Numbered from the stretch's first letter, positions 1 through 23,413 are shown. The stretch is DNA of 23,413 nt from a virus (IMGVR_UViG_2740892229_000010); one strand, 5' to 3'. Translations and numbers: made by a program. Notes: a model not told the origin generated them from the sequence alone.

Positions 1-90
1 GCGCTGACGCTGACGGATGTTACAAAAAATGCAGCGTATGGCGTTGAGATAGAAAGTCTGGTGCTGGAGATAAATGCACCGGCAGCATAA
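1..90 (+). CDS. 3' end of an unidentified upstream gene, truncated by the window start
   Basis: Open frame from position 1 to TAA at 88-90 (…YGVEIESLVLEINAPAA*). Only 29 codons visible, too short for the ORF track; the frame was chosen by eye. Its position upstream of the late leader is compatible with a Q-like antiterminator C-terminus, but I do not recognise the sequence. Confidence 0.2.
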   Translation, partial: ALTLTDVTKNAAYGVEIESLVLEINAPAA

Positions 91-132
91 TAAAAAAAGA
101 GCCAGCGACTGACCTGAAAGAAGACGCTGGCT
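91..132 (-). terminator. Putative intrinsic terminator, minus-strand orientation
   Basis: 8-bp stem agccagcg/cgctggct at 100-132 with a 17-nt loop; a run of seven A at 92-98 on the + strand gives a T-run after the hairpin on the - strand. No T-run follows on the + strand. Confidence 0.3.
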
Positions 133-600
133 AAAAGGCCTTATATGTTTGTAGAGACTTATTTTTCACAGACAGCAATGATGCCTGTCAATATATTATC
201 AATATGCGGATTGTTTCAGTTACAGATGCTTTATTAAGGAAAAAAACAGCCAGCACTGACTTTCGGTGGAGAGGTGCTGGCTCAGAAGGATAGTTGGATT
301 TCACATGATACTTATGCCTGGCGGTATATTTTCTGACAGACAGTGACGGGTGTTGTCAAGATATTGTGTCATTTATAACCTGAATCAGGGGAGGCCGGAA
401 TGTTATCTGGNNNNNNNNNNTCCACTCTGAAGGACGCTGGCTAAAACGGGTAGATGTACTTCACATGATACTTATATTTGGCAGTACATTTTCTGACAGA
501 CAGTGACGGATGTTGTCAAGATATTGTGTCATTTATAACCTGAATCAGGGGTTGGTCGGAATGTTATCTGGCATTTTTAGCAGAGCCTGAATGCCATAAT
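97..600. repeat. Diverged repeat units of about 150 bp, each with a stem-loop and a conserved downstream block
   Basis: Unit A (about 97-240) and unit B (about 241-410) are adjacent with no N run between them and share a hairpin plus a block like 'ttctgacagacagtgacgg.tgttgtcaagatattgtgtcatttataacc'. Unit C (421-600) follows the N run at 411-420 and is near-identical to B, so it is probably the allelic copy rather than a third tandem unit. Confidence 0.5.
238..283 (-). terminator. Putative intrinsic terminator, minus-strand orientation (second repeat unit)
   Basis: 9-bp stem agccagcac/gtgctggct at 249-283, preceded on the + strand by an A-run at 238-245. The stem differs from unit A by compensatory changes that keep pairing. 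Confidence 0.3.
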
Positions 601-617
601 CACGGCTCCCGGAGTTG

Positions 618-654
618 GCCGTCAGTGGGTGACACTGGCGGCTTTTTGTTTTCC
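618..654 (+). terminator. Rho-independent terminator in the late leader upstream of the holin (tR'-like)
   Basis: 10-bp stem gccgtcagtg/cactggcggc (one G-U pair), 5-nt loop ggtga, then tttttgttttcc. It lies 44 bp upstream of the holin ATG, the position tR' occupies in lambda. Confidence 0.55.
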
Positions 655-697
655 TTTACTTTCATTTTCTGTCGGCGGTGACGGAGACATACATCAG

Positions 698-904
698 ATG
701 GAAAAAATCACAACGGGTGTGTCATACACCACGTCAGCGGTGGGGACGGGATACTGGTTACTGCAGCTGCTGGACAAAGTCTCTCCGTCCCAGTGGGTGG
801 CAATAGGTGTGCTGGGAAGTCTGCTGTTTGGCCTGCTGACGTATCTGACTAACCTGTATTTCAAAATCAGAGAGGACCGTCGTAAGGTGGCGCGGGGAGA
901 GTAG
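698..904 (+). CDS. S: Class II holin, phage-21-type pinholin
   Basis: 68 aa from ATG 698 ([68 protein letters not shown]). Closely matches the S21 pinholin as I recall it, including the [21 protein letters not shown] tail; two hydrophobic segments; GGAGA about 10 nt upstream. The ORF track's 629 start is an upstream extension across the terminator. Confidence 0.85.
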
Positions 905-950
905 TCGATGAATAAACAATACGAACTGGTTGTAAAATGANNNNNNNNNN

Positions 951-999
951 TTATTTCAAGATTAAAGAAGATAAGCGTAAGGTGGCGCGGGGAGAGTAG
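951..999 (+). other. Allelic second copy of the holin 3' end after an N run
   Basis: Following N 941-950 the sequence restarts inside the holin tail and encodes …YFKIKEDKRKVARGE* against …[15 protein letters not shown] in the first copy. The R-to-K changes are conservative, as expected for a paralogous allele rather than sequencing error. Confidence 0.6.
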
Positions 1000-1254
1000 T
1001 CGATGAATAAACAATACGAACTGGTTGTAAAATGAATATTTCTAACTGAAAAAACGTTCCATGAGGTAAGAAAAGGTCACAGGCAATCAATAACAGGACG
1101 TGATGAAAGACCCTTGCATTTGTGCGCTTTCTCTTTAGATAGCAGCAGATACTGAAAATCTGAGTTGTCGGGGAGTCAGGGATACAGCTGTGCAAGAGTT
1201 GGTCATTGTGATTCCATTGAAATCCTGTATGCCATGAAGGGCAGGATTTTATGG

Positions 1255-1569
1255 CTACCTGAGCTTTGGTGATAGTAAGTTGAAAATTCGCATTTTTTGC
1301 TGACATGCGTAACGAGAATCCCATAAGCAGGGAGGACTTAATTCTTCATTAACCCATGCGTTGATATTATGTTTCAGCCGTTGAAGCATCAGCGGTGTTA
1401 ATGTTGTGGTAATAATATCCAGCGTTTTATGTGAGATCTTACCGTAAGGGTCTGCAAGAATGCTGCTTGTTGCTTCGTTATTATCTGCCATCAGAAGAAG
1501 TAACTCTGATTTAACGTTTTCTGTCATTAGTTGTAAAAATCTTCTGCGCAAACTTTCTTTACTGTTCAT
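1255..1569 (-). CDS. Hypothetical protein on the opposite strand inside an AT-rich insertion between holin and endolysin
   Basis: 104-codon ORF antisense to the lysis operon in a region (about 1021-1686) visibly more AT-rich than the flanking phage genes. No recognisable motif and no strong SD at any of the candidate starts (1569, 1524, 1488). Confidence 0.3.
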   Translation of the reverse strand: MNSKESLRRRFLQLMTENVKSELLLLMADNNEATSSILADPYGKISHKTLDIITTTLTPLMLQRLKHNINAWVNEELSPPCLWDSRYACQQKMRIFNLLSPKLR

Positions 1570-1686
1570 TTATATGGCTTCATTTGTTGTAATCTGCTGC
1601 GTCTCAAGGGATATGTTTATGAGAGCGACCATGAGTGTTGGATTATATACCTAACATATCAAGGGATTAGAAATCGATAAATCCCC

Positions 1687-2204
1687 ATGAACGAAAAAAT
1701 AAAATACGGCCTGTCGGCTGCCGTTCTGGCGCTGATTGGTGCAGGTGCTTCTGCGCCTGAAATCCTCGACCAGTTTCTGGATGAAAAGGAAGGTAACCAC
1801 NNNNNNNNNNGATCTGGACCATCTGCCGTGGTGCCATTCTGGTGGATGGTAAGCCTGTTATTCCTGGCATGAAGCTGTCAAAGGAAAAATGCGACCGGGT
1901 TAATGCCATCGAACGTGACAAGGCTCTGGCATGGGTGGAGAAAAACATCCGGGTGCCGCTGACCGAACCCCAGAAAGCGGGGATCGCGTCATTCTGTCCG
2001 TACAACATTGGCCCCGGTAAGTGCTTCCCGTCGACGTTTTATAAACGAATTAATGCAGGCGATCGAAAAGATGCCTGTGAGGCGATTCGCTGGTGGATTA
2101 AGGACGGTGGCAGAGACTGCCGTATCCGTTCAAATAATTGCTACGGTCAGGTCTCACGGCGTGACCAGGAGAGCGCGCTGGCGTGCTGGGACATCGACAG
2201 ATAG
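1687..2204 (+). CDS. R: SAR endolysin (phage lysozyme, 933W R-like), interrupted by an N run
   Basis: N-terminus MNEKIKYGLSAAVLALIGAGASAPEILDQFLDEKEGNH has the weakly hydrophobic signal-anchor-release segment. After N 1801-1810 the ORF 1842-2204 continues …DGKPVIPGMKLSKEKCDRVNAIERDKALAWVEKN…RRDQESALACWDIDR, matching the 933W-type lysozyme as recalled. The apparent frame change at the N run is an assembly effect. Confidence 0.85.
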
Positions 2205-2294
2205 CAGAATATTTTCCTGAAAAATGACGTTGGCCAACGCGGGTGGATAACACGAAATCCTGAAAACTGGTAAAACCTAAGTGAATAAAAGTAA

Positions 2295-2334
2295 AAACCC
2301 CGTTTGTTGGCAGCAAGCGGGGTTTTGTGTTTTC
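2295..2334 (+). terminator. Rho-independent terminator between endolysin and spanin genes
   Basis: Stem ccccgtttg/caagcgggg extended by aaa/ttt, 7-nt loop, then ttttgtgttttc. Confidence 0.5.
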
Positions 2335-2424
2335 TGACCTTGAGTAAGGCAAGGGAGAAATTATGGGTAGGGAGGTACTTTCCCTGTGAGGAAGTATAAA
2401 AGATTCTTTCTGAGGTTGTCCATT

Positions 2425-2538
2425 ATGAAAGGCATTGAAGTGGAGACGCCAGCCAGTCTGGATTTAACAAGAGCGGCAGCTTTTGCCATTCGTATTGTGG
2501 CCATTGCTGTTCTGGTCTGGGCAATCCGTTGGTGGTGA
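2425..2538 (+). CDS. Small hydrophobic ORF (37 aa) coupled to the Rz start
   Basis: ATG 2425 with GAGG 9 nt upstream; MKGIEVETPASLDLTRAAAFAIRIVAIAVLVWAIRWW; stop TGA 2536-2538 sits 1 nt before the Rz ATG (tgATATG). Below the ORF-track length cutoff. One predicted TM helix. Confidence 0.3.
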   Translation: MKGIEVETPASLDLTRAAAFAIRIVAIAVLVWAIRWW

Positions 2539-2539
2539 T

Positions 2540-3172
2540 ATGAACCGTGTTCTGTGCGTGGTTATCATTGTCCTGCTGGTGGCCTGTGGTGCGCTTAGTC
2601 TGGGGCTGAATCATTACCGTGATCACGCCATCATCTACAAAGAGCAGCGCGATAAAAAAGCCAGTGAGCTGGAGCTGGCGAACGCGACAATTACTGATAT
2701 GCAGATACGCCAGCGTGATGTCGCTGCACTTGATGCCAGATACTCGAGGGAATTAGCCGATGCGAGAGCTGAAAATGAAACTNNNNNNNNNNTCATCACC
2801 TACAAAGCGCAGCGCGATAAAAAAGCCAGAGAGCTGGAGCTGGCAAACGCAACCATTACTGATATGCAGGTGCGCCAGCGCGATGTTGCTGCGCTCGATG
2901 CAAAATACTCGAGGGAATTAGCCGATGCGAGAGCTGAAAATGAAACTCTGCGTGCTGATGTTGCCGCTGGTCGTAAGCGCCTGCGGATCAACGCCACCTG
3001 CTCCGGTACCGTGCGTGAAGCCACCGGCACCTCCGGCGTGGATAATGCAACCGGCCCCCGACTGGCAGACACCGCTGAACGGGATTATTTCATCCTCAGA
3101 GAACGGCTGATGGCAATGCAGAAGCAACTGGAAGGAGCACAGGAATATATCCGTACCCAGTGTATACCGTGA
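2540..3172 (+). CDS. Rz: Rz inner-membrane spanin (i-spanin), composite across an N run
   Basis: From ATG 2540: [41 protein letters not shown]…[35 protein letters not shown], matching lambda Rz as recalled. The N run at 2783-2792 is followed by an allelic repeat of the preceding 50 codons, so the true protein is about 150 aa, not the 210 implied by the coordinates. Confidence 0.8.
2940..3110 (+). CDS. Rz1: Rz1 outer-membrane lipoprotein spanin (o-spanin), embedded in Rz in the +1 frame
   Basis: [56 protein letters not shown]: lipobox LVVSAC and a proline-rich mature part matching lambda Rz1. Lies wholly inside Rz in a different frame. An alternative ATG at 2925 is in frame. Confidence 0.75.
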
Positions 3173-3635
3173 TGTTTTGTTATGAAGGTGTTACTGGTAA
3201 CGTTAAGGTAATTTAACAAAGAGTCAGTTCCGGACTTTATAGTGTGCTCAGTTCATGGCCAAAAACGATTTCTGTGATAAATATTTTGAATATTATTTAC
3301 AGGTAAATGGAGTGGGGCGCATGGATAGAAATATTACAATAGAGTATGAAGTATATGCCCGTATTGTATGGGCAGAGAAGGCAAAAACATGGTAATTCCG
3401 TGTGTTGCCATGATACCTGATTGGCAGAATTGTTGTTTGGTTTTGAGTATATAGTCAGCGTCTTTTGTTCGGTAATTGCTCTTTCAATTAAAATGCCAGA
3501 TATGATTTGCTTTTCTTTGTTGTTTAGTTTTTTTGTATATTATTTTTATTGTTTTTATATAATTAGTTTTTTATTGTTGTCTTATTAAGGACGGTAAATT
3601 CAGGATGGCAGTCTGTAGATAAACGGAGGTTACTT

Positions 3636-3950
3636 ATGCTACATGATCACCTGGCAGAATGTCTGGAGAAAAAAGGACTGTACCGGAGAGCAGCTGAACG
3701 ATGGGCAAAAGTGATGGTACAGCTAAGTGATGACCAGAAAAGAAAAGTGGCGGCACAGAAACGAGCAGAGTGTTTGCGTAAGGCGCGCCGGACTCCGGTT
3801 TCACCGGTGAACCTGACCGAAATAAAACAAGCGGTCAACAGACTACATTCTGAGTTGGGAATGGGATTTGAAGAGCGGCGGGTATTCCGACGATATAAAG
3901 GGACAGGAGAACAGAATACGTCCGGAAACGCGCGGTCAAAAAAATGCTAA
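3636..3950 (+). CDS. PerC-family transcriptional regulator (Pch-like)
   Basis: 104 aa with strong SD (ggagg) 7 nt upstream. The N-terminal motif KGLYRRAAERWAKVM resembles the PerC/Pch signature (GxYRRAAxRWLxVM, from memory). Preceded by about 450 bp of strongly AT-rich DNA (3181-3635). Confidence 0.6.
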   Translation: MLHDHLAECLEKKGLYRRAAERWAKVMVQLSDDQKRKVAAQKRAECLRKARRTPVSPVNLTEIKQAVNRLHSELGMGFEERRVFRRYKGTGEQNTSGNARSKKC

Positions 3951-3985
3951 AAAATATCTGAGAGCGTTATTGCCTGTTACCATAA

Positions 3986-4014
3986 GAAAAAGCGACTTTA
4001 GTGGTCGCTTTTTG
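3986..4014. terminator. Bidirectional intrinsic terminator between convergent genes
   Basis: Stem gcgac/gtcgc with an A-run on the 5' side and a T-run on the 3' side (aaaaagcgac-tttagtg-gtcgcttttt), between the PerC-like gene (+) and the YlcI-like gene (-). Confidence 0.5.
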
Positions 4015-4031
4015 TGTCATATATAAGTCGT

Positions 4032-4256
4032 TTAAGTAAACCTGTCTGAACAGGTTCTCTGGTCGTGTTTGTCTTTGTTGGGTACAAATTGAGAATATTT
4101 TTCATTAATTAATCTTCTTCTGCAGGCTTCAATAACCCACGCTGAAAAATTTTCTGAACCTTTCTGGTCAAGAGCGATGTTAATTTGTTCAATCATCTGG
4201 TTTGGAAATCGGATGTTGCGGGTTGTTGTTCTGCGGGGCCGGTTTTTCGATGACAT
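4032..4256 (-). CDS. Small YlcI/YnfO-like prophage protein (DUF3950-like)
   Basis: 74 aa, MSSKNRPRRTTTRNIRFPNQMIEQINIALDQKGSENFSAWVIEACRRRL…; resembles the small proteins found next to the terminase remnant in E. coli cryptic prophages, recalled from memory with moderate certainty. Confidence 0.45.
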   Translation of the reverse strand: MSSKNRPRRTTTRNIRFPNQMIEQINIALDQKGSENFSAWVIEACRRRLINEKYSQFVPNKDKHDQRTCSDRFT

Positions 4257-4279
4257 TTTCTTTCCTCTGNNNNNNNNNN

Positions 4280-4384
4280 ACCTGAACCTTTCAGGTCAAG
4301 AGCGATGTTAATTTGTTCAATTATCTGGTTTGGAAATCGGATGTTGCGGGTTGTTGTTCTGCGGGTTCTGTTCTTTGATGACAT
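4280..4384 (-). CDS. Allelic second copy of the YlcI-like gene 5' part, truncated by an N run
   Basis: MSSKNRTRRTTTRNIRFPNQIIEQINIALDLKGSG… starting at 4384 and ending at the N run 4270-4279; differs from the 4032-4256 copy by a few substitutions. Confidence 0.4.
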
Positions 4385-4591
4385 AATGTTGCCCCGTATT
4401 CAGTGTTGCTGATTTGTATTATCTGAAGTTGCTTTTACGCTAATTTGATGCAGATCAATTAATACGATACCTGCGTAATAATTGATTATTTCTCGTGGTT
4501 TGATGGCGTACACACATGTCGTGATAAACCTCATGTAGATGATAATTATTATCATTTTCGTGGGTCCTTTCCGGCGATCCGACAGGTTACG

Positions 4592-4603
4592 GGGCGGCGA
4601 CCT
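4592..4603. other. cosN, the 12-nt cohesive-end sequence GGGCGGCGACCT
   Basis: gacaggttacg|GGGCGGCGACCT|cgcgggttttcgctatttatgaaaattttccgg matches the lambda right-end/left-end junction as I recall it, including the first 33 nt to the right of cosN. Confidence 0.8.
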
Positions 4604-4629
4604 CGCGGGTTTTCGCTATTTATGAAAAT

Positions 4630-4745
4630 TTTCCGGGATCCATGTCCGGTTTCTCTTCAAGTTAACTATATGAAAAATATAAAAACAGGTCTTCTGTGAA
4701 CCGGACATGAACAAAAAACAGACATGTAAACCGGACATGACCGGT
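4630..4745 (+). promoter_or_regulatory. cosB-like terminase-binding region: three CCGGACATG repeats and an AT-rich IHF-like spacer
   Basis: Inverted copy catgtccgg at 4641-4649, direct copies ccggacatg at 4701-4709 and 4731-4739 (plus gacatg at 4721-4726), with an AT-rich stretch at 4655-4690 between the first and second. The layout parallels lambda R3-I1-R2-R1, but the repeat sequence is not lambda's. Confidence 0.55.
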
Positions 4746-4786
4746 TTTGTTGTGATTGTGAGGTGAGAGTTTTTGCGAGGTGAGGA

Positions 4787-5296
4787 GTGGCTACGCAGAC
4801 TGAAGTTGCCAGGCATTTAAGTCTGACCGATCGCCAGCTTCGCAGATTGCAGAAATTGCCGGGTGCCCCGATATCGAATAAGCGAGGGCAACTGGATCTG
4901 GATGCCTGGCGCGATTTTTACATATCGTATCTGAGGAGAAGTAAAAACGATGTGCCTGATGGCGATAGCGAAGACGACTATGAGGAGAAATTGCTTATTG
5001 CCAGATGGGAACTGACAGCAGAACAGGCTGTTACACAGCAGTTAAAAAATGAGGTGTCAAAAGGAAAACTTATTGACACCGGGTTCTGTATTTTTGCCCT
5101 CAGTAAGCTGGCAATGGCGTTATCCAGTACGCTTGATTCCATCCCTTTATCCATGCAGCGACAGTTTCCTGATTTAACACCGCGCCATCTTGACCATCTG
5201 AAAACCCTTATTGCTAAGGGGGCAAATCAGTGTGCGCGGGCAGGGGATAAATTACCGGATTTACTCGATGAATATATCAGAGCAACAACTGAATAA
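4787..5296 (+). CDS. Nu1: Terminase small subunit (Nu1-like)
   Basis: GTG start at 4787 with GAGGTGAGGAG upstream. The C-terminal half (…TGFCIFALSKLAMALSSTLDSIPLSMQRQFPDLTPRHLDHLKTLIAKG…LPDLLDEYI) aligns with lambda Nu1; the N-terminal DNA-binding part is diverged, which fits the different cosB repeats. Overlaps the start of A. Confidence 0.85.
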   Translation: MATQTEVARHLSLTDRQLRRLQKLPGAPISNKRGQLDLDAWRDFYISYLRRSKNDVPDGDSEDDYEEKLLIARWELTAEQAVTQQLKNEVSKGKLIDTGFCIFALSKLAMALSSTLDSIPLSMQRQFPDLTPRHLDHLKTLIAKGANQCARAGDKLPDLLDEYIRATTE

Positions 5297-7196
5297 TATG
5301 ATGGCTGCCGTTTCGGTTGCGCTGCAGCCTCTGGTCAGGGTTGTACCAATGACGGCAGTTGAATGGGCTGATCAAAATTATTATCTGCCTAAAGAATCTT
5401 CATATGGTGAGGGAGAATGGAAAACGCTGCCATTCCAGATCGCCATTATGAACTGTATGGGTAACGACCAGGTTCGCACGGTTAACCTGATTAAATCTGC
5501 CCGTGTTGGCTATACAAAGATGTTGCTGGGGGTGGTCGGGTATTTTATTGAGCATAAATCCCGAAACAGTCTGCTTTTTCAGCCCACGGATTCTGCCGCT
5601 GAAGATTTTATGAAGTCTCACGTGGAGGCGACGATTCGGAACGTGCCATGCCTGAAAGACCTTTCCCCATGGCTGGGTCGTAAACATCGTGACAATACTC
5701 TCACGCTGAAACGCTTTTCATCGGGCGTCGGTTTCTGGTGCCTGGGCGGCGCTGCCGCCAAAAACTACCGTGAAAAATCCGTGGACGTGGTCTGCTATGA
5801 CGAACTTTCCTCGTTCGAGCCGGATGTCGAAAAAGAGGGCTCGCCAACCCTGCTGGGGGATAAGCGTATTGAGGGGTCGGTGTGGCCAAAATCCATTCGC
5901 GGCTCGACGCCTAAAATCAAAGGCACCTGCCAGATCGAAAAAGCCGCTAACGAGTCGGCGCATTTTATGCGTTTTTATGTGCCCTGCCCGCACTGTGGGG
6001 AGGCGCAGTATCTGAAATTTGGCGATGAGTCCACGCCTTTTGGGCTTAAATGGGAGAAGGACAGCCCCGAAAGTGTTTTCTACCTCTGTGAACATCATGG
6101 CTGCGTGATCCATAAGTCTGAACTGGACCAGAGCAACGGGCGGTGGATCTGTGAAAACACGGGCATGTGGACCCGTGACGGTCTGACGTTTTTCAGCGCC
6201 CGGGGTGATGAAATTCCGCCGCCGCGCTCCATCACGTTCCATATCTGGACGGCGTACAGTCCGTTCACCACCTGGGTACAGATTGTCTATGACTGGCTGG
6301 ATGCACTGAAAGATCCCAACGGCCTGAAAACCTTTGTGAACACCACGCTGGGCGAGACCTGGGAAGAGGCCGTGGGCGAAAAACTCGATCACCAGGTACT
6401 GATGGATAAGGTGGTGCGTTACACGGCGGCGGTGCCTGCCCGGGTGGTTTATCTGACGGCGGGCATTGACTCGCAGCGAAACCGTTTTGAGATGTATGTC
6501 TGGGGATGGGCACCGGGAGAGGAAGCCTTTCTGGTGGATAAAATCATCATTATGGGGCGTCCCGATGAGGAAGAGACGCTGTTACGTGTGGATGCTGCGA
6601 TCAACAAAAAATACCGCCATGCGGATGGCACCGAAATGACCATTTCCCGTGTCTGCTGGGACACCGGGGGAATCGATGGTGAAATTGTTTATCAGAGATC
6701 AAAAAAACACGGTGTTTTCCGGGTGCTGCCGGTAAAGGGCGCGTCTGTCTATGGCAAGCCGGTGATCACCATGCCGAAAACCCGCAATCAGCGGGGCGTG
6801 TATCTGTGTGAAGTGGGGACGGACACCGCAAAAGAAATTCTCTATGCCCGTATGAAAGCCGATCCCACTCCTGCGGATGAAGCCACGTCGTATGCCATCC
6901 GTTTTCCTGATGATCCGGAGATTTTTTCGCAGACAGAGGCGCAGCAACTGGTCGCGGAAGAGCTTGTGGAGAAGTGGGAAAAAGGAAAGATGCGTCTGCT
7001 GTGGGATAACAAAAAGCGGCGTAACGAAGCGCTGGACTGCCTGGTGTATGCCTACGCGGCATTACGTGTGTCCGTGCAACGCTGGCAGCTTGATCTGGCT
7101 GTACTGGCAAAATCCCGGGAAGAAGAGACGACCCGGCCAACCCTGAAAGAACTGGCAGCGAAGCTGTCCGGAGGAGTGAATGGTTACAGTCGCTGA
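5268..7196 (+). CDS. A: Terminase large subunit (gpA-like)
   Basis: From ATG 5268 (MNISEQQLNN…): a long collinear match to lambda gpA, for example TAVEWADQNYYLPKESSYGEGEWKTLPFQ, KNYREKSVDVVCYDELSSF, FHIWTAYSPFTTWVQIV, KKRRNEALDC. The ORF track's 5211 start is an upstream TTG extension. Confidence 0.95.
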   Translation: MNISEQQLNNMMAAVSVALQPLVRVVPMTAVEWADQNYYLPKESSYGEGEWKTLPFQIAIMNCMGNDQVRTVNLIKSARVGYTKMLLGVVGYFIEHKSRNSLLFQPTDSAAEDFMKSHVEATIRNVPCLKDLSPWLGRKHRDNTLTLKRFSSGVGFWCLGGAAAKNYREKSVDVVCYDELSSFEPDVEKEGSPTLLGDKRIEGSVWPKSIRGSTPKIKGTCQIEKAANESAHFMRFYVPCPHCGEAQYLKFGDESTPFGLKWEKDSPESVFYLCEHHGCVIHKSELDQSNGRWICENTGMWTRDGLTFFSARGDEIPPPRSITFHIWTAYSPFTTWVQIVYDWLDALKDPNGLKTFVNTTLGETWEEAVGEKLDHQVLMDKVVRYTAAVPARVVYLTAGIDSQRNRFEMYVWGWAPGEEAFLVDKIIIMGRPDEEETLLRVDAAINKKYRHADGTEMTISRVCWDTGGIDGEIVYQRSKKHGVFRVLPVKGASVYGKPVITMPKTRNQRGVYLCEVGTDTAKEILYARMKADPTPADEATSYAIRFPDDPEIFSQTEAQQLVAEELVEKWEKGKMRLLWDNKKRRNEALDCLVYAYAALRVSVQRWQLDLAVLAKSREEETTRPTLKELAAKLSGGVNGYSR

Positions 7197-7386
7197 ACTA
7201 CAGGCGCTACGTCAGGCGCGCCTTGATTTATTAACCGGTAAACGGGTGGTGTCTGTCCAGAAAGATGGTCGCAGAATTGAATATACGGCGGCTTCTCTGG
7301 ATGAGCTTAACCGGGCGATCAATGATGCGGAGTCGGTACTGGGGACAACCCGGCGTCGCCGTCGTCCGCTGGGAGTGAGGTTATGA
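7180..7386 (+). CDS. W: Head-tail joining protein W
   Basis: 68 aa; LTGKRVVSVQKDGRRIEYTAASLDEL…RRRRRPLG matches lambda gpW. Overlaps the A stop and the portal start. Confidence 0.85.
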   Translation: MVTVAELQALRQARLDLLTGKRVVSVQKDGRRIEYTAASLDELNRAINDAESVLGTTRRRRRPLGVRL

Positions 7387-9368: not shown

Positions 9369-9385
9369 TCTTTCANNNNNNNNNN

Positions 9386-9541
9386 CGAGGATTATCAGGA
9401 CATTTTCCGCCAGCAGGTCAGGGAATCTGCTGAGCGACAAAAAGCCGGACTCTCACGTCCGGTGTGGATAGCGCAGGCGTATGAGCAGCAGATAGCGGAG
9501 AGTCGCAGGCCGGAAGAGGAGACAACACCACGTGAGACGTA
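9386..9541 (+). other. Allelic second copy of the portal 3' end, carrying the C start
   Basis: After N 9376-9385 the last 50 codons of the portal recur with substitutions (for example AESAEREKAG versus AESAERQKAG, and QQKIAE versus EQQIAE). Confidence 0.6.
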
Positions 9542-14654: not shown

Positions 14655-14662
14655 TCCGTGAG

Positions 14663-14692
14663 CGGGGGCGAAATGCCCCCGTGTCTTTTTTC
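14663..14692 (+). terminator. Intrinsic terminator after the major capsid gene, allele 2 copy
   Basis: Same cgggggc-gaaat-gcccccg hairpin and T-run as at 12945-12974. Confidence 0.55.
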
Positions 14693-14705
14693 ACAGGGGG
14701 ATGAT

Positions 14706-15426: not shown

Positions 15427-15440
15427 ACGCAGGGTGAATT

Positions 15441-15985: not shown

Positions 15986-16377
15986 AACATACTGATATCC
16001 GTGCTGCAGTGCTGGATGCACTCGAGCAGCATGAACACGGGGCGACGCTGTTTGATGGTCGCCCCGCTGTTTTTGATGAGGCGGATTTTCCGGCAATTGC
16101 TGTTTATCTCACCGGCGCTGAATACACGGGCGAAGCGCTGGACAGCGATACCTGGCAGGCGGAGCTGCATATTGAAGTTTTCCTGCCTGCTCAGGTGCCG
16201 GATTCAGAGCTGGATTCGTGGATGGAAAGCCGGATTTATCCGGCGATGAGTGCGATCCCGGCACTGTCAGGCCTGATTACCACGATGGTTACGCAGGGCT
16301 ATGAGTATCGTCGTGATGACGATATGGCGTTATGGAGTTCTGCTGATTTGACTTATTCCATTACATACGAGATGTGA
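15982..16377 (+). CDS. U: Tail terminator protein U
   Basis: [87 protein letters not shown]…[10 protein letters not shown] is a near-complete match to lambda gpU. Confidence 0.9.
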
Positions 16378-16384
16378 GGACGAT

Positions 16385-17292
16385 ATGCCAACACCAAATC
16401 CTCTGGCACCGGTAAAAGGTGCCGGTACCACCCTGTGGGTTTATAACGGTCAGGGTGATGCCTATGCAAACCCGTTGTCAGACGATAACTGGCAGCGACT
16501 GGCACAGGTAAAGGATCTGACGCCGGGCGAGATGACGGCAGAACCCTACGATGATAACTACCTGGATGATNNNNNNNNNNTACCACTCTGTGGGTTTACA
16601 ACGGCAAGGGTGATGCTTATGCAAACCCGTTGTCAGACGATGACTGGCAGCGACTGGCTAAGGTGAAGGATCTGACGCCGGGCGAGATGACGGCAGAACC
16701 CTACGATGATAACTACCTGGATGATGAAGACGCGGACTGGACCGCGACCGGGCAGGGGCAGAAGTCTGCAGGAGATACCAGTTTTACGCTGGCCTGGAAA
16801 CCGGGAGAAGAAGGTCAGAAAGGGCTTATAGGCTGGTTTGAAAGCGGGGATGTGCGGGCCTATAAAATCCGTTTCCCAAATGGCACGGTGGATGTGTTCC
16901 GTGGCTGGGTCAGCAGTATCGGTAAGGCCGTGACGGCGAAAGAAGTGATCACCCGCACGGTGAAAGTCACTAACGTGGGCAAACCTTCCGTGGCGGAAGA
17001 ACGCAGCGAAATTACGCCGGCCACTGCAATTAAGGTGACACCGACATCCGGTACGGTGGCAAAAGGGAAAACAACCACCCTGACGGTTTCTTTTGAGCCG
17101 GAAAGTGCAACCGACAAGACGTTCAGAGCGGTTTCCGCCGATCCGTCGAAAGCCACCATTAGTGTGAAAGATATGACAATTACGGTAAACGGCGTGGCGA
17201 CAGGTAAGGTGCAGATCCCTGTGGTGAGCGGAAATGGTCAGTTCGCCGCAGTGGCTGAAGTCACCGTTACTGAAGCGGGCGCTGCAGGGTAA
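16385..17292 (+). CDS. V: Major tail protein V, allele 1, with an N run
   Basis: [63 protein letters not shown] and [40 protein letters not shown] match lambda gpV, including the C-terminal Ig-like extension. N 16571-16580 is followed by an allelic repeat of the preceding 30 codons. Confidence 0.9.
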
Positions 17293-17305
17293 ACGGAGGT
17301 AATAC

Positions 17306-17728
17306 ATGTTTCTGAAAACAGAACAATTTGAATATAACGGTGTGTCCGTCACGCTTTCCGAATTGTCTGCGCTGCAGCGGTTTGATTATATGAAGTTTGT
17401 TTCAGACGCAGCACAACAGAAGACAACGAAGCATAATGCCGTGCACATTAACCAGCGATATCTGGAAACGGCATCCCTGCTTGTGGCGATGTCGCTATGG
17501 CATTCCCATTCCCTCAAAGGCACTCTGGCCTCTCCGGAGACAGAGATGCAGCAGATCCGCCGTGAAGTGATGCTGGGATGGCCTGCTGATGCACTGAATC
17601 AGGCAACGAACCGGGTGCTTTATCTTTCAGGTATGCTGGATAACCGGCACGATGCCGATCCTGAACAAACCGGGAAAGCAGAAGCGACTGAGCCGGTAAC
17701 ATCAAAAAAGCATTCGAAGGCGAGCTGA
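17306..17728 (+). CDS. G: Tail assembly chaperone G, allele 1
   Basis: MFLKTEQFEYNGVSVTLSELSALQR…LLVAMSLWH… matches lambda gpG. Confidence 0.85.
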   Translation: MFLKTEQFEYNGVSVTLSELSALQRFDYMKFVSDAAQQKTTKHNAVHINQRYLETASLLVAMSLWHSHSLKGTLASPETEMQQIRREVMLGWPADALNQATNRVLYLSGMLDNRHDADPEQTGKAEATEPVTSKKHSKAS

Positions 17729-18168
17729 ACTTTGTCCTGAAACTGGCGCGAGAGATGGGGAGACCCGACTGGCGCGCCATGCTTGCCGGGATGACATCCA
17801 CCGAATATGCCGACTGGCGACGTTTTTACTGCACGCATTATTTTCAGGATACCCAACTGGACGCTCATTTTTCCGGGCTGATGTACGCCGTACTCAGCCT
17901 GTTTTTTGGCGATCCGGATATGCATCCGGCGGATTTCAGTCTGCTTGCTCCAGCGTGTGAGGAAGAGCAGACGGAGATGCCGGACGAGGAAGAAATGCTG
18001 ATGCAGAAAGCGACAGGAGTTGCCGGAGGCGTCCGGTTCGGAGGGGACGGAGGGCGCGATATTTCACCTTCTGCGGATGTGGTGGATGTCAGCGAGGATG
18101 ATGTTGCATTAATGATGGCTTCAGCGGGGATTTCCGGAGGTGTGAGATATGTCCCAGCCAGCGGGTGA
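17306..18168 (+). CDS. T: Tail assembly chaperone GT fusion by programmed -1 frameshift, allele 1
   Basis: The T frame is -1 relative to G and is open from 17692 to 18168 (…KKAFEGELNFVLKLAREMGRPDWRAMLAGMTSTEYADWR…). The heptamer A AAA AAG at 17704-17710 is in the correct X XXY YYZ register in the G frame. Confidence 0.7.
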
Positions 18169-18349
18169 TCTGGTTATTGATTTGAGTCTGGATGCGGCCC
18201 GGTTTGATGAACAGATGGCCCGGGTACACCGTCATTTTTCCAGTCTGGAGGCGGATGCCAGAAAAACCGCCAGTACTGTTGAACAGGGGCTGAGCCGACA
18301 GGCGCTGGCTGCACAAAAAGCCGGGATATCAGTCGGACAGTATAAGGCT
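18149..18349 (+). CDS. H: Tail tape measure protein H, allele 1, N-terminal fragment truncated by an N run
   Basis: MSQPAGDLVIDLSLDAARFDEQMARVHRHFSSLEADARKTASTVEQGLSRQALAAQKAGISVGQYKA matches the lambda gpH N-terminus and overlaps the T stop. Confidence 0.8.
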
Positions 18350-18359
18350 NNNNNNNNNN

Positions 18360-18774
18360 GAACGGCACGGTGGATGTGTTCCGTGGCTGGGTCAGCAGTA
18401 TCGGTAAGGCCGTAACGGCGAAGGAAGTGATCACCCGTACGGTGAAAGTGACCAACGTGGGCAAACCTTCTGTGGCGGAAGAACGCAGCGAAATTACGCC
18501 GGTCACTGCGATTAAGGTGACGCCGACATCTGGTACGGTGGCAAAAGGGAAAACAACAACCCTGACGGTTTCTTTTGAGCCGGAAAGTGCAACCGACAAA
18601 ACGTTCAGAGCGGTTTCCGCCGATCCGTCAACGGGAACCATTGCTGTGAAAGATATGGCGATCACTGTGACGGGGGTTAAGGCTGGAAAAGTGAGTATCC
18701 CCGTGATTTCCGGTAATGGTCAGTTTGCCACGGTAGCTGAAGTCACCGTTACTGAAGCGGGCGCTGCAGGGTAA
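18360..18774 (+). CDS. V: Major tail protein V, allele 2, C-terminal fragment
   Basis: After N 18350-18359: [37 protein letters not shown]…TVTEAGAAG, near-identical to the C-terminus of the 16385-17292 copy, with substitutions in the Ig-like part. Confidence 0.8.
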
Positions 18775-18787
18775 ACGGAGGTCATAC

Positions 18788-19219
18788 ATGTTTCTGAAAA
18801 CCGAACAATTTGAATATAACGGTGTGTCCGTCACGCTTTCCGAGCTGTCTGCGCTGCAGCGTATCGAGCATCTTGCCCTGCTGAAACGACGGGCAGAACA
18901 GGCTGAAGCCAGCGGTAACCTGCAGGTGAGCGTGGAAGACCTTGTCAGAACCGGCGCGTTTCTGGTGGCGATGTCCCTGTGGCATAACCATCCACAGAAA
19001 ACGGAGTCACCATCAATGAATGAGGCTGTGATGCAGATCGAACAGGAGGTGCTCACCACCTGGCCTGCTGATGCCATTGCCCGGGCGGAAGACGTGGTGT
19101 TGCGTCTGTCCGGGATGAGCGGGGCTGTTCATGCGGATACTGACAGCACCGAAGTGGCGAAAAATAACGCGCTGACTGATGATGATTTTTCTGCGGGAAA
19201 GTCTTCGACGGCGAGCTGA
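18788..19219 (+). CDS. G: Tail assembly chaperone G, allele 2
   Basis: MFLKTEQFEYNGVSVTLSELSALQRIEHLALLKRRAEQAEASGNLQVSVEDLVRTGAFLVAMSLWHNHPQKTESPSMNEAVMQIEQEVLTTWPADAI… is closer to lambda gpG than allele 1 is. Confidence 0.85.
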   Translation: MFLKTEQFEYNGVSVTLSELSALQRIEHLALLKRRAEQAEASGNLQVSVEDLVRTGAFLVAMSLWHNHPQKTESPSMNEAVMQIEQEVLTTWPADAIARAEDVVLRLSGMSGAVHADTDSTEVAKNNALTDDDFSAGKSSTAS

Positions 19220-19659
19220 ATTTTGCCCTCAGACTGGCGCGTGAGATGGGGAGGCCTGACTGGCGCGCCATGCTTGCCGGGATGACATCCACCGAATATG
19301 CCGACTGGCGACATTTTTACCGTACGCATTATTTTCTCGATACCCAACTGGATATGCATTTTTCCGGGCTGACGTACGCCGTACTCAGCCTGTTTTTTTG
19401 CGATCCGGATATGCATCCCTCTGATTTCAGTCTGCTTGCCCCCCGGCGTGAGGAAGCGCAGACGGAGATGCCGGATGAGGAAAAAATGCTGATGCAGAAA
19501 GCGGCAGGACTTGCCGGAGGCGTCCGGTTTGGTGGGGACGGAGGGCGTGAGATTTTATCGTCTGCGGATGTGGCGGATGTCAGCGAGGATGATGTCGCAT
19601 TAATGATGGCTTCAGCGGGGATTTCCGGAGGTGTGAGATATGTCCCAGCCGGTTGGTGA
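18788..19659 (+). CDS. T: Tail assembly chaperone GT fusion by programmed -1 frameshift, allele 2
   Basis: The lambda-type heptamer G GGA AAG at 19195-19201 is in register in the G frame; the -1 frame then reads GKVFDGELNFALRLAREMGRPDWRAMLAGMTSTEYADWR… to TGA 19657-19659. Confidence 0.75.
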
Positions 19660-22600
19660 TCTTGTTATTGACCTGAGTCTGGATGCGGTCCGTTTCGATG
19701 AGCAGATGAGCCGGGTAAGGCGTCATTTTTCCGGACTGGAGACTGACGCCAGAAAAACCGCCGGTGTTGTTGAGCAGAACCTGAGTCGTCAGGCGCTGGC
19801 TGCACAAAAAGCCGGGATTTCCGTCGGGCAGTATAAAGCGGCCATGCGAACCCTGCCCGCACAGTTTACGGATATCGCCACGCAGCTTGCCGGTGGTCAG
19901 AATCCCTGGCTGATCCTGCTGCAACAGGGCGGTCAGGTGAAGGACTCCTTCGGCGGGATGATCCCCATGTTCAGGGGACTTGCTGGTGCGATCACCCTGC
20001 CGATGGTCGGGGTCACCTCGCTGGCGGTGGCGACAGGTGCGCTGGCGTACGCCTGGTACCAGGGGGATTCCACGCTTTCAGCGTTTAATAAAACCCTGGT
20101 TCTTTCCGGTAATCAGTCCGGACTGACTGCCGATCGCATGCTGACGCTCTCCAGAGCCGGACAGGCCGCAGGGCTGACGTTTAACCAGGCGAGTGAGTCA
20201 CTGGCAGCCCTGGTGAATGCCGGTGTGCGTGGTGGTGAACAGTTTGATGCCATCAACCAGAGTGTCGCGCGTTTTGCTTCTGCATCCGGTGTGGAGGTGG
20301 ACAAGGTGGCAGAGGCTTTCGGAAAACTGACCACCGACCCGACGTCGGGACTGATGGCGATGGCGCGCCAGTTCCGTAACGTGACGGCAGAGCAGATTGC
20401 GTATGTTGCACAGCTGCAGCGTTCCGGAGACGAGGCCGGGGCATTGCAGGCGGCGAACGATATCGCCACGAAAGGCTTTGATGAGCAGACCCGTCGCCTG
20501 AAAGAAAACATGGGAACACTGGAGACCTGGGCGGATAAAACAGGGAAGGCATTCAAATCGATGTGGGATGCCATTCTGGATATCGGTCGTCCTGAGTCCT
20601 CAGCGGATATGCTCGCCAGTGCACAGAAGGCATTTGATGAGGCAGATAAAAAATGGCAGTGGTACCAGAGCCGGAGCCAGCGCCGGGGAAAAACCGCCTC
20701 TTTCCGGGCCAACCTTCAGGGCGCATGGAATGACCGGGAAAATGCCCGTCTGGGGCTGGCAGCGGCCACGCTGCAGTCGGATATGGAAAAAGCCGGTGAA
20801 CTGGCCGCCAGGGACCGGGCCGAACGGGACGCATCACAGCTGAAGTATACCGGAGAGGCGCAGAAGGCGTATGAGCGTCTGCTGACGCCGCTGGAGAAAT
20901 ATACCGCCCGTCAGGAAGAACTGAATAAGGCCCTGAAAGACGGGAAAATCCTGCAGGCGGATTACAACACGCTGATGGCGGCGGCGAAAAAGGATTATGA
21001 ATCGACGCTGAAAAAGCCGAAGTCGTCAGGAGTCAAAGTGTCAGCCGGTGAGCGTCAGGAAGACCAGGCGCATGCTGCCCTGCTGGCGCTTGAAACCGAG
21101 CTCCGGACGCTGGAAAAACACAGCGGTGCGAATGAGAAAATCAGCCAGCAGCGTCGCGATTTATGGAAAGCGGAAAATCAGTATGCGGTCCTGAAAGAGG
21201 CAGCCACGAAACGGCAGTTATCTGAGCAGGAAAAATCCCTGCTGACCCATGAGAAAGAGACGCTGGAGTACAAACGCCAGCTGGCTGAGCTGGGAGACAA
21301 AGTTGAACACCAGAAACGGCTGAATGAGCTGGCACAGCAGGCTGCGCGGTTTGANNNNNNNNNNGCCATGCGCACACTGCCCGCACAGTTCACGGATATT
21401 GTCACTCAGCTTGCCGGTGGTCAGAATCCCTTCCTTATCATGCTGCAGCAGGGGGGGCAGATCAGCGATTCATTCGGTGGACCGCTCAGCCTGCTTACCC
21501 TGCTGAAGGAGGAACTTCTCGGGATCAGGGATGCCTCTGAATCATCAGAGGAGTCGCTGTCAGATACGGCAAATGCACTGGCTGAAAATGCCCGGAATGC
21601 CGGTGAGCTGGGACGATTTATGTCGGTGGCCCGTGTGGCGGCAGGTGGCGGGGTTGCCGTACTGGCCGCGCTTGCTGCCGCCGCCTGGCAGGCAGAGCAG
21701 GCTGACCGGGCCTTATTGCGTTCACTGACCCTGACCGGAGGGGCTGCTGCCACCACAACGGCAGAATTGTGGAAAATGGCCGGGGTGATCAGCGATGAAG
21801 CCGGTGGTGGTATCAGACAGGCGGCAGAAAATCTGGCCCGTCTGGCAGAAAGCGGGAAATATACCGCCGGGCAGCTACGGATCATGGGGGAAACCTCTCA
21901 GAGATGGCTGCAGACGGTGGGGGACGATGCCGGGAAGGTGGAAAAAGCCTTTGAAGGGATTGCAGCAGATCCGGTGAAGGCGCTGGCCTCCCTGAATCAG
22001 CAGTATAACTTCCTGAGCGTTTCCCAGTTACGCCATATTGATGAGCTTGAGCGCACGAAAGGTAAACAGGCTGCGGTGACGGAGGCGATGTCCCTGTTTG
22101 CGGATGTCATGAATGCACGTCTGGAGCAACTTGATAAAGCGGCCACGCCGGTGGAAAAAATCTGGGACGATGTTAAAACCTGGACTTCTGACGCATGGGC
22201 ATGGATAGGTGATCATACACTGGGGGCACTCAGTCTGATCACTGACGTGGTGGCAGGAACCGTTGAACAGGTGAAGCTGCTGCTTGTGCAGGGGGATCTG
22301 GCGCTGGCTGAATTTATTCAGTCAGCCTGGGAAACGACAAAGAATGTGCCCGGCGTTGGTGCGTTGTTTGGTGAACTGGCAGAAGAGAACCGCGTATTTA
22401 TTGAGAAAACAAAACGTGATGAACTGGCGCTGAGAAAATCCATTGCGGAACGGGATGCGCGTATACGCCAGGGGGAAATGGGGTACATCAACCGCTCGCG
22501 TGCAACAGGCGTCAGCAAAGGTCCTGGGCAGCAGGAAGCCGTCAGCCGTCTGGCTGAAGAGCTGACAGGTAAAAAGCATACATCACCGAAAACGCGCTCT

Positions 22601-23413
22601 GCCGGGGAGAGGGAAGAGGAGCAGGCAAGAGAGGCTCTGCTTGCCCTTGAAGCTGAGCTCAGGACGCTGGAAAAACACAGCGGTGCGAATGAGAAAATCA
22701 GTCGGCAGCGCCGTGATTTATGGAAGGCGGAAAGTCAGTATGCGGTCCTGAAAGAGGCTGCCACGAAACGACAGTTATCTGAGCAGGAAAAATCCCTGCT
22801 GGCGCATAAAGACGAGACGCTGGAGTACAAACGCCAGCTGGCTGAGCTGGGCGACAAGGTTGAATACCAGAAACGCCTGAATGAGCTGGCACAGCAGGCG
22901 GTGCGGTTTGAAGAGCAGCAGAGCTCGAAGCAGGCCGCCATCAGCGCAAAAGCCCGCGGTCTCACTGACCGTCAGGCGCAGCGGGNNNNNNNNNNGCAGT
23001 TATCCTGGCAGGAAAAATCCCTGCTGGCCCATGAGAAAGAGACGCTGGAGTACAAACGCCAGCTGGCTGACCTGGGCGACAAGGTTGAACACCAGAAACG
23101 CCTGAATGAGCTGGCACAGCAGGCGGTGCGGTTTGAAGAGCAGCAGAGCGCGAAGCAGGCCGCCATCAGCGCAAAAGCCCGCGGTCTCACTGACCGTCAG
23201 GCGCAGCGGGAGTCTGAAGCGCAGCGTCTTCGGGACGTGTACGGTGATAATCCGCAGGCGCTGGCCCGGGTCACTGGGGCACTGAAACAGACATGGGCGG
23301 ATGAAGACATGCTGCGCGGTGACTGGCTGGCCGGGCTGAAGTCCGGCTGGGGGGAGTGGGCGGAAAGTGCGACGGACAGTTTTTCGCAGGTTAAAAGTGC
23401 TGCCACGCAGACC
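19640..23413 (+). CDS. H: Tail tape measure protein H, partial at the window end, composite across two N runs
   Basis: ATG 19640 (MSQPVGDLVIDLSLDAVRFDEQMSRVRRHFSGLETDARKTAGVVEQ…AAMRTLPAQFTDIATQLAGGQNPWLILLQQGGQVKDSFGGMIPMFRGLAGAITLPMVG…) is collinear with lambda gpH. After N 21355-21364 a second allele restarts near H residue 70 with a different N-proximal domain and rejoins the common sequence around 22620; N 22986-22995 adds a third overlapping piece. No stop codon before the window end. Confidence 0.85.
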   Translation, partial: MSQPVGDLVIDLSLDAVRFDEQMSRVRRHFSGLETDARKTAGVVEQNLSRQALAAQKAGISVGQYKAAMRTLPAQFTDIATQLAGGQNPWLILLQQGGQVKDSFGGMIPMFRGLAGAITLPMVGVTSLAVATGALAYAWYQGDSTLSAFNKTLVLSGNQSGLTADRMLTLSRAGQAAGLTFNQASESLAALVNAGVRGGEQFDAINQSVARFASASGVEVDKVAEAFGKLTTDPTSGLMAMARQFRNVTAEQIAYVAQLQRSGDEAGALQAANDIATKGFDEQTRRLKENMGTLETWADKTGKAFKSMWDAILDIGRPESSADMLASAQKAFDEADKKWQWYQSRSQRRGKTASFRANLQGAWNDRENARLGLAAATLQSDMEKAGELAARDRAERDASQLKYTGEAQKAYERLLTPLEKYTARQEELNKALKDGKILQADYNTLMAAAKKDYESTLKKPKSSGVKVSAGERQEDQAHAALLALETELRTLEKHSGANEKISQQRRDLWKAENQYAVLKEAATKRQLSEQEKSLLTHEKETLEYKRQLAELGDKVEHQKRLNELAQQAARFXXXXAMRTLPAQFTDIVTQLAGGQNPFLIMLQQGGQISDSFGGPLSLLTLLKEELLGIRDASESSEESLSDTANALAENARNAGELGRFMSVARVAAGGGVAVLAALAAAAWQAEQADRALLRSLTLTGGAAATTTAELWKMAGVISDEAGGGIRQAAENLARLAESGKYTAGQLRIMGETSQRWLQTVGDDAGKVEKAFEGIAADPVKALASLNQQYNFLSVSQLRHIDELERTKGKQAAVTEAMSLFADVMNARLEQLDKAATPVEKIWDDVKTWTSDAWAWIGDHTLGALSLITDVVAGTVEQVKLLLVQGDLALAEFIQSAWETTKNVPGVGALFGELAEENRVFIEKTKRDELALRKSIAERDARIRQGEMGYINRSRATGVSKGPGQQEAVSRLAEELTGKKHTSPKTRSAGEREEEQAREALLALEAELRTLEKHSGANEKISRQRRDLWKAESQYAVLKEAATKRQLSEQEKSLLAHKDETLEYKRQLAELGDKVEYQKRLNELAQQAVRFEEQQSSKQAAISAKARGLTDRQAQRXXXXQLSWQEKSLLAHEKETLEYKRQLADLGDKVEHQKRLNELAQQAVRFEEQQSAKQAAISAKARGLTDRQAQRESEAQRLRDVYGDNPQALARVTGALKQTWADEDMLRGDWLAGLKSGWGEWAESATDSFSQVKSAATQT

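Follow-up and report, generated by a model that had tools for sequence, protein, structure and literature searches.

The question raised by the window, that is, the whole stretch of 23,413 nucleotides analysed here, is whether it represents one real piece of phage DNA with repeated lysis, head and tail genes, or alleles from several prophages written one after another. We favour the latter with a probability of roughly 0.93: the window would consist of 19 short-read de Bruijn contigs (k = 61) from about six lambdoid prophages of one Escherichia coli genome close to strain 2013C-4991, joined by spacers of 10 N, the source probably being a single isolate. The earlier note on this DNA had proposed 'two or more' prophages; several are indeed present, and about six donors is the sharper figure.

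Eighteen runs of exactly 10 N, all at the positions reported before (411, 941, 1801, 2783, 4270, 8112, 8636, 8881, 9376, 9956, 10256, 12830, 13915, 15466, 16571, 18350, 21355 and 22986), divide the window into 19 segments, S0 to S18. The junctions were sorted by BLAST of the 19 segments against one another and by a junction-by-junction overlap analysis. At 10 of the 18 (411, 941, 2783, 4270, 8112, 8636, 8881, 9376, 16571 and 22986) the end of one segment directly overlapped the start of the next over 66–214 nt at 88–98.5% identity, and at four others the following segment stepped back and re-covered 0.3–1.7 kb as a second allele: S10 falls within S11, S13 goes again over the 3′ part of S11 and over S12, S16 in its 5′ half over S15, and S17 over the 3′ part of S16. 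The two second-allele blocks described previously were thus recovered, the one at 13925–15465 comprising the 3′ part of E, FI, FII and only the start of Z, and the one at 18360–19659 (3′ part of V, G and T) running on into H to 21354. The remaining four junctions (1801, 9956, 12830 and 15466) showed no overlap with the neighbouring segment, so that the claim of a repeat after the N run 'in nearly every case', which applies to 14 of the 18, was somewhat generous; at 9956 and 15466 one flank (the tail of S9 and the head of S14, respectively) overlapped a non-adjacent segment. Behind these four runs lie true gaps of 26, 184, 37 and 41 nt, respectively, all written as 10 N, and the spacer is therefore no estimate of gap size. 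Redundancy amounted to ∼29% of the window, ∼16.4 kb of prophage being written out as 23.2 kb, and three alleles of the tape-measure gene H, from S16, S17 and S18, are stacked. No structured RNAs or tRNAs were found in the window. An exact 60-mer of S17 occurred in 60 IMG/VR contigs, none with N runs or with the exact core of S17; the plain sequence pattern had no match in the genome collection, and one spanning an N-run junction had none in the viral, genome or metagenome collections.

Every allele of the window was present in one finished chromosome, that of E. coli 2013C-4991 (NZ_CP027355.1), an EHEC strain of serotype O80:H2 (PMC8537712), where the module occurs at 0.63, 1.23, 1.28, 1.55, 1.83 and 2.10 Mb in six prophage loci:

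P1, 1.22–1.25 Mb (locus label L063)
P2, 2.09–2.12 Mb (locus label L064)
P3, 0.61–0.65 Mb, Stx2c-converting (locus label L065)
P4, 1.26–1.30 Mb (locus label L066)
P5, 1.81–1.85 Mb
P6, 1.535–1.572 Mb

The segments, with their strand, genes, assigned donors and following junctions (N10), are:

S0, 1–410 (+): 3′ end of a SASA-family esterase gene and spacer upstream of the holin; P1, 100% identical, terminal 60-mer in P1 and P2, 61-mer in P1 only. N10 411–420; direct overlap of 276–410 with 436–571, 88%.
S1, 421–940 (+): P21-type class II holin (ORF 629–904; Pfam PF04971); mosaic of P6 (421–715), then P1 (716–940). N10 941–950; 84-nt overlap, 90.5%, terminal exact 60-mer 881–940 equal to 976–1035.
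S2, 951–1800 (+): holin tail repeated (R-to-K), a small ORF on the opposite strand and the beginning (5′ part) of the lysozyme gene; P6/P1. N10 1801–1810; true gap 26 nt.
S3, 1811–2782 (+): 3′ part of the lysozyme gene (ORF 1842–2204; Pfam PF00959) and 5′ part of an Rz-type lysis gene; P1, 100% identical, terminal 60-mer also in P4 and P5. N10 2783–2792; 154-nt overlap, 90.9%.
S4, 2793–4269 (+): part of the lysis gene again, a PerC-family regulator (3636–3950) and a YlcI/YnfO gene (opposite strand, going by the annotation of the corresponding site in the donor prophages); mosaic P6, P1, P5, with 3184–4269 equal to P5 (0 mismatches). N10 4270–4279; 103-nt overlap, 93%.
S5, 4280–8111 (+): Nu1 (4787–5296), terminase A (ending at 7196), W and the portal gene B in its 5′ part; P1, P2 and again P1 in a perfect mosaic. 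N10 8112–8121; 162-nt overlap, 97.5%.
S6, 8122–8635 (+): portal gene fragment, mostly P2-like. N10 8636–8645; 66-nt overlap, 98.5%.
S7, 8646–8880 (+): portal gene fragment, P2-like. N10 8881–8890; 132-nt overlap, 97.7%.
S8, 8891–9375 (+): 3′ part of the portal gene; P1 stub (8891–8963), then P2. N10 9376–9385; 163-nt overlap, 96.9%.
S9, 9386–9955 (+): last part of the portal gene and first part of C/Nu3 (protease-scaffold); P1; tail overlaps S11 over 145 nt, 97.9%. N10 9956–9965; ∼184 nt of P1 absent before S10.
S10, 9966–10255 (+): 290-nt C/Nu3 fragment, 100% identical to P1, wholly within the span of S11 (10597–10885, 96.5%). N10 10256–10265.
S11, 10266–12829 (+): C/Nu3, D (11530–11877; Pfam PF02924) and 5′ part of E; P2, 2564/2564 identical. 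N10 12830–12839; true gap 37 nt.
S12, 12840–13914 (+): end of E, FI, FII (13364–13717) and start of Z; P2, with a P1 stub from 13697. N10 13915–13924; back-step.
S13, 13925–15465 (+): second allele of the E 3′ part, FI, FII and Z start (Pfam PF03864), re-covering 12235–13756; P1, 1541/1541 identical, likewise to 18 finished genomes. N10 15466–15475; ∼41 nt of P1 absent before S14.
S14, 15476–16570 (+): Z (to 15985), U (15982–16377) and 5′ part of V; 57-nt P2 stub, then P1. N10 16571–16580; 145-nt overlap, 93.8%.
S15, 16581–18349 (+): V, G (17306–17728), T and 5′ part of H; P3 up to 17439 and P4 beyond, a perfect hybrid. N10 18350–18359; back-step.
S16, 18360–21354 (+): second allele of the V 3′ part, G and T, and 1.7 kb of H; P1 up to 19093 and P2 beyond, a perfect hybrid. 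N10 21355–21364; back-step.
S17, 21365–22985 (+): alternative H allele (Pfam PF06791), tail module of the Stx2c-type prophage P3, 99.8% identical. N10 22986–22995; 214-nt overlap, 94.9%.
S18, 22996–23413 (+): third H allele, overlapping S16 and S17; P4, 418/418 identical. The window end carries the contig-end signature, terminal 60-mer in P3 and P4, 61-mer in P4 only.

Identity to the assigned donor was 99.5–100%, and S0, S3, S10 and S13 (P1), S11 (P2) and S18 (P4) were 100% identical to a single prophage. When homologous positions were compared with all six donors, only 4 of the 23,233 non-N bases remained unmatched, including one in a run of G in FII (five in the window, four in P2), whereas unrelated prophage controls left 739 and 1,528 sites unmatched. 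A mixture of two donors only was ruled out, as P3, P4, P5 and P6 are required to account for S17, S18, S15, S4 (3′ part) and S1/S2. A single reference prophage was likewise ruled out, the best record, PhiR12_2_star, reaching only 93.8% over 79% of the window and the other best record (99.2%) matching S5 alone.

The manner in which the segments end indicates the forking and merging of a de Bruijn graph with k = 61. At 12 of the 18 internal 3′ ends the last 60 nt exactly matched the interior of another segment while the 61st base back differed, and about 12 segment starts showed exactly one mismatching base followed by a match; 12 terminal matches of exactly 60 nt cannot be due to chance. With the finished genome as a proxy, the terminal 60-mer was present in at least two prophages and the 61-mer was rarer at 15 of the 18 internal 3′ ends and at the window end, and for 12 of the 18 internal starts the preceding 60-mer was common to another prophage in which the next base was different. 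The fork signature was absent from the proxy genome at three 3′ ends (S1, S4 and S16) and six starts, which would have to be explained by extra prophage copies or strain differences. One exact match, between S12 and S13, extended to 76 nt and thus exceeded k − 1, so that the contigs must be resolved paths rather than raw unitigs. These 60-mer ends and the six loci in one finished chromosome bear out the previous proposal that short-read contigs of several lambdoid prophages had been concatenated.

We propose that the source genome held about six lambdoid prophages with lysis, head and tail modules 85–99% identical. Where prophages shared at least 61 nt they would have collapsed into one graph node, and where they differed a fork would have formed, a contig thus starting at the first base past a shared 60-mer and ending with the next shared 60-mer. 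The joining step would then have left non-identical arms unmerged and printed them serially with a fixed or minimum spacer of 10 N, giving rise to apparent tandem allelic repeats and back-steps, while dropped collapsed nodes would appear as short gaps. None of the gaps of 26, 37 and 41 nt reaches 60 nt. Velvet uses k − 1 overlaps with odd k and a minimum gap of 10 N, and nodes appended after a gap lose their k − 1 prefix. With k = 61 these rules agree with segment ends at 60 nt, with the asymmetry of the starts and with the 10-N runs, but gaps of 26–184 nt were written as 10 N too. The assembler may have been Velvet, a literature search having returned no usable passage on a 10-N minimum gap. 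The homologous prophage content of STEC is known to exceed the capacity of short reads (PMC10925052).

A variant of this explanation differs in the last step only: the contigs of all prophages may have been piled on one reference and ordered by it, with a fixed 10 N between them, rather than scaffolded by paired ends. The spacer is constantly 10 N at true distances from −289 to +184 nt, the interleaved contigs come from loci as much as 1.5 Mb apart, and the segments are nearly monotonic in reference coordinates, only S10/S11 and S12/S13 being out of start order. A strict sort by start coordinate would, however, place S11 before S10 and S13 before S12, and paired-end links through collapsed repeat nodes would yield identical interleaving, which leaves reference-guided ordering a tentative alternative.

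Donor painting further revealed a change of donor inside S1, S4, S5, S8, S12, S14, S15 and S16. Chimeric genes, which had been expected at the N runs and do occur there, are thus not confined to them. All clean internal switches sit in stretches of 92–1092 nt that are identical between the donors and at least k − 1 long, and the site-by-site table and donor painting of S5 contained 0 sites private to the window. Real recombination or gene conversion between resident prophages after divergence from 2013C-4991 is an unlikely source of the switches in S5 (P1 to P2 to P1), S15 (P3 to P4) and S16 (P1 to P2), as against path errors of the assembler; if it were true, the window would document that prophages of one EHEC lineage had recently exchanged head and tail modules.

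Where the overlaps had an open frame, codon changes were synonymous in 75 cases and non-synonymous in 42, a pattern that fits coding sequence, and the R5K and R8K changes in the holin tail were present. Differences at codon positions 1, 2 and 3 numbered 25, 17 and 93; as third positions were favoured (93/135), the overlapping copies differ as real paralogous alleles do. This bias and the identity of the alleles to finished prophages rule out sequencing error, which the earlier note had also considered improbable. The same alleles could in principle stem from a mixed culture or metagenome containing several E. coli strains rather than from the paralogous prophages of one genome, since alleles cannot be phased to one cell from the sequence alone and such lambdoid modules occur in thousands of E. 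coli genomes. One finished chromosome nevertheless holds all six donor alleles with four bases unmatched, while prophages of other strains leave 739–1,528 sites unmatched; moreover, the alleles lie 2–13% apart, which is what paralogous prophages, rather than strain variants of a single prophage, would be expected to show, and the pattern of N-run junctions was not found in the metagenome collection. A mixture of strains is therefore very improbable.

Genuine tandem or segmental duplications within one prophage, with N runs standing for short unsequenced stretches, have nothing but the appearance of the sequence in their favour and can practically be dismissed, as every repeat junction is an N run with no continuous sequence across it, all repeat boundaries fall on an N run and an exact 60-mer, the finished genome carries the identical copies at separate loci far from one another, no such tandem repeats exist in the six finished prophages or in the compared phage records (PhiR12 and other lambda relatives), and duplication would disrupt the genes for portal, protease, capsid and tape measure.

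The window is thus a well-known, ordinary assembly artefact and not one real piece of DNA: its N runs are of fixed length, most of its segment ends are shared (k − 1)-mers and its repeated copies correspond to separate single-copy loci. Its significance is that of a warning about data quality. Gene models taken from it would be falsely chimeric, duplicated or truncated, those of the portal, C/Nu3, E, V, H and lysis genes and even some lying within a single segment, for example terminase A and H; tandem repeats called by repeat-finding programs would be spurious, and prophages or alleles would be miscounted. The 60-mer signature provides a quick test for such scaffolds from sequence only and also recovers k. 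The underlying biology, several paralogous lambdoid prophages per EHEC genome, here with one of Stx2c type, is already well known.

Compared with phage lambda, the window has the gene order and gene families of the late operon (lysis cassette, Nu1-A-W-B-C/Nu3-D-E-FI-FII-Z-U-V-G-T-H), with Pfam matches to holin, lysozyme, Nu1, gpA, D, E, Z, G and the tape-measure protein; once the redundancy is removed, these genes are all on the plus strand in lambda order. Related lambda-like phage records annotate the same late genes at a DNA identity of 88–94%. The window differs from lambda in its P21-type holin, in a PerC-family gene between the lysis genes and cos/Nu1, and in an operon broken and partly duplicated by assembly, whereas in the prophages of 2013C-4991 each module is single-copy and continuous. 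The repeat forks and bubbles of de Bruijn assemblies of STEC and EHEC genomes show the same (k − 1)-mer ends, partly collapsed paralogues, chimeric contigs and fixed short N spacers between unmergeable contigs, with no essential difference from the window, in which the only unusual trait is that both arms were kept and printed in series.

The window is the lysis-head-tail module of an Escherichia coli lambdoid prophage, encoded entirely on the + strand, its genes being identified by Pfam and annotated relatives; neither tRNAs nor Rfam families were found in the window.

Genes of the window
Lysis genes, + strand: P21-type holin, lysozyme and Rz-type lysis gene (Pfam, relatives)
3636-3950, + strand: PerC-family gene, 104 aa (Pfam PF06069, E = 5e-44)
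Head-tail genes, + strand: Nu1, A, W, B, C/Nu3, D, E, FI, FII, Z, U, V, G, T and part of H (Pfam, relatives)

The genes D (head decoration) and E (capsid) are separated by a short spacer with a perfect 22-nt palindrome (11885-11906), possibly a hairpin or an element resembling a terminator; a weaker palindrome of 33 nt lies at 2294-2326.

As reported in the earlier note, the window contains 18 runs of exactly 10 N, which divide it into 19 segments of 235-3832 nt (S0-S18, numbered 5' to 3'). The junctions were classified by all-against-all BLAST of the segments followed by a junction-by-junction check.

Junctions, named by the first position of the N run
411, 941, 2783, 4270, 8112, 8636, 8881, 9376, 16571, 22986: direct suffix-prefix overlap (10 of 18; 66-214 nt, 88-98.5% identity)
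10256, 13915, 18350, 21355: back-step (4 of 18)
1801, 9956, 12830, 15466: no overlap between neighbours (4 of 18), hiding true gaps of 26, 184, 37 and 41 nt, respectively

Among the back-steps, S10 (290 nt) is contained in the span of S11, S13 repeats the 3'-terminal 596 nt of S11 together with most of S12 (87-94%), and the first 1.5 kb of S16 repeats S15 (88-90%). The last 1.5 kb of S16 is in turn repeated by S17, and S18 overlaps both, so that three alleles coexist in the tape-measure gene. The claim that the flanks repeat each other at nearly every N run thus holds for 14 of the 18 junctions and fails at four. Altogether, ∼23.2 kb of window sequence maps onto ∼16.4 kb of lambdoid late region. 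Differences between the copies are indeed coding-compatible: in open-frame overlaps, 75 codon differences are synonymous and 42 non-synonymous, nucleotide differences number 25, 17 and 93 at codon positions 1, 2 and 3, and the holin tail shows the R-to-K changes noted earlier.

When the maximal exact matches of the window with itself were all listed, 12 proved to be exactly 60 nt long, each ending at the last base of a segment and having its partner in the interior of another segment, where the 61st base back differs. Likewise, about 12 segments start with exactly one base that differs from its counterpart in the overlapping segment and match thereafter. By our own arithmetic, the chance that an exact match at a segment end is exactly 60 nt long is ∼0.005 per end at 3% divergence, so that 12 such runs at 18 ends are far beyond chance. 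Terminal matches and one-base starts of this kind are as expected from a de Bruijn graph with k = 61. A contig would end with the (k-1)-mer at which it merges with another path and start at the first distinguishing base after a shared (k-1)-mer, and a simple junction would thus represent both arms of one unmerged bubble placed in series, plus the shared 60-mer. S12 and S13 also share an exact match of 76 nt (12904-12979 and 14622-14697), longer than k-1 = 60, which a raw unitig graph would have collapsed; the contigs therefore appear to be paths that had been resolved or threaded, not raw unitigs.

Eighteen finished E. coli genomes match S13 at 100% identity, among them that of 2013C-4991 (NZ_CP027355.1), an American O80:H2 EHEC strain (PMC8537712). 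In this chromosome the competing allele, S12, is found at a distance of 870 kb (99.5%), S17 at a third locus (99.8%), S18 at a fourth (100%), the 3' part of S4 at a fifth and S1 at a sixth. The six prophage regions were fetched and each window base was compared with all of them.

Donor prophages in NZ_CP027355.1
P1 (1.23 Mb): identical to S0, S3, S10 and S13
P2 (2.10 Mb): identical to S11 (2564/2564 bases)
P3 (0.63 Mb), Stx2c-converting: tail module matches S17
P4 (1.28 Mb): identical to S18
P5 (1.83 Mb): identical to window 3184-4269
P6 (1.55 Mb): matches S2 and the first part of S1

For 23,229 of the 23,233 non-N bases, one donor or more has the same base at the homologous position. The same test left 739 unmatched sites for the homologous stretch of another STEC strain's prophage and 1,528 for phage PhiR12_2_star, indicating that the base-match criterion discriminates. 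As judged from these matches, the source is the 2013C-4991 lineage or one almost identical to it at the loci compared. The number of donor prophages, given earlier as two or more, is thus about six. The gene for the PerC-family transcriptional activator follows the lysis genes and precedes Nu1, in the P5-identical part of S4; in EHEC, the LEE island is regulated by PerC homologues carried on prophages (Pch). The first half of S15 (16581-17439) and S17 (21365-22985) match the tail module of P3, which in 2013C-4991 carries the stx2 A and Stx2c B subunit genes (10503-11743 of its fetched region, L065), and the source strain thus probably carries a Shiga-toxin prophage. P3 has a different head module (HK97-type) and for that reason contributes only tail alleles. 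P1 and P4 (regions L063 and L066; 1.22-1.30 Mb) are only ∼10-15 kb apart, nearly tandem and in the same orientation, an arrangement that would favour recombination between them. FII in S12 has a G5 run (13452-13456) within an intact 117-aa ORF (13364-13717), whereas the homologous P2 gene has G4 and is annotated as frameshifted; several other genes of the six finished prophages are also flagged, and these frameshifts look like homopolymer errors of the long-read reference, not like true pseudogenes.

Genes spanning N runs are chimeric, as had been suggested, and chimerism also extends inside segments. S5 has no private variant, equals P1 or P2 at 96/96 variable sites and follows the order P1, P2, P1; S15 and S16 are perfect hybrids (P3 then P4, and P1 then P2, respectively), and S8, S12 and S14 bear a short stub of another donor at one end. 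All clean switches fall where both donors are identical for 92-1092 nt, at least k-1, and several switch points coincide with shared 60-mers.

With NZ_CP027355.1 as a proxy for the source, 15 of the 18 internal 3' ends terminate in a 60-mer present in two or three prophages, the 61-mer being present in fewer. The last 60-mer of the window (23354-23413) is likewise common to P3 and P4, the 61-mer occurring in P4 only, and the window thus terminates at a contig end. No fork signature was seen at its start (1-60), so that the first contig probably continues upstream. At 12 of the 18 internal starts, the preceding 60-mer also occurs in another prophage, where the next base differs. None of the three shortest gaps (26, 37 and 41 nt) reaches 60 nt, and junctions 1801 and 12830 have a merge to their left and a fork to their right in the proxy genome. 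Each of these gaps presumably corresponds to the inside of a small collapsed node omitted from the scaffold.

These comparisons establish the k-mer signature, assign the donors and place all of them in one finished chromosome; the source was presumably a single isolate. The results support the earlier proposal of concatenated short-read contigs from a genome with several lambdoid prophages, and we consider it very probable (about 0.93) that contigs of one EHEC-type genome, assembled in a graph with k = 61, were scaffolded or concatenated to give the window. Such a genome would carry about six paralogous lambdoid prophages, and a joining step unable to merge non-identical arms would have strung these together with spacers of 10 N, either a fixed length or a minimum. 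Velvet is a candidate for the software, as it would account for k-1 overlaps with an odd k, a gap minimum of 10 N and appended nodes lacking their prefix, yet 10 N also stand for gaps of 26-184 nt. A reference-guided pile-up in place of paired-end scaffolding, altering the last step only, is a tentative possibility, as the segments are nearly, but not strictly, sorted in reference coordinates. Alleles from a strain mixture are unlikely, since all fit one chromosome almost perfectly, and a real tandem duplication is for practical purposes excluded, as all boundaries are N runs bearing the 60-mer signature and none of the finished prophages compared has this arrangement. Homologous STEC prophages are well known to be hard to assemble from short reads (PMC10925052). 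The arrangement of the window is not a biological feature, and the value of the record is to caution that genes, repeats and allele counts should not be taken from it.
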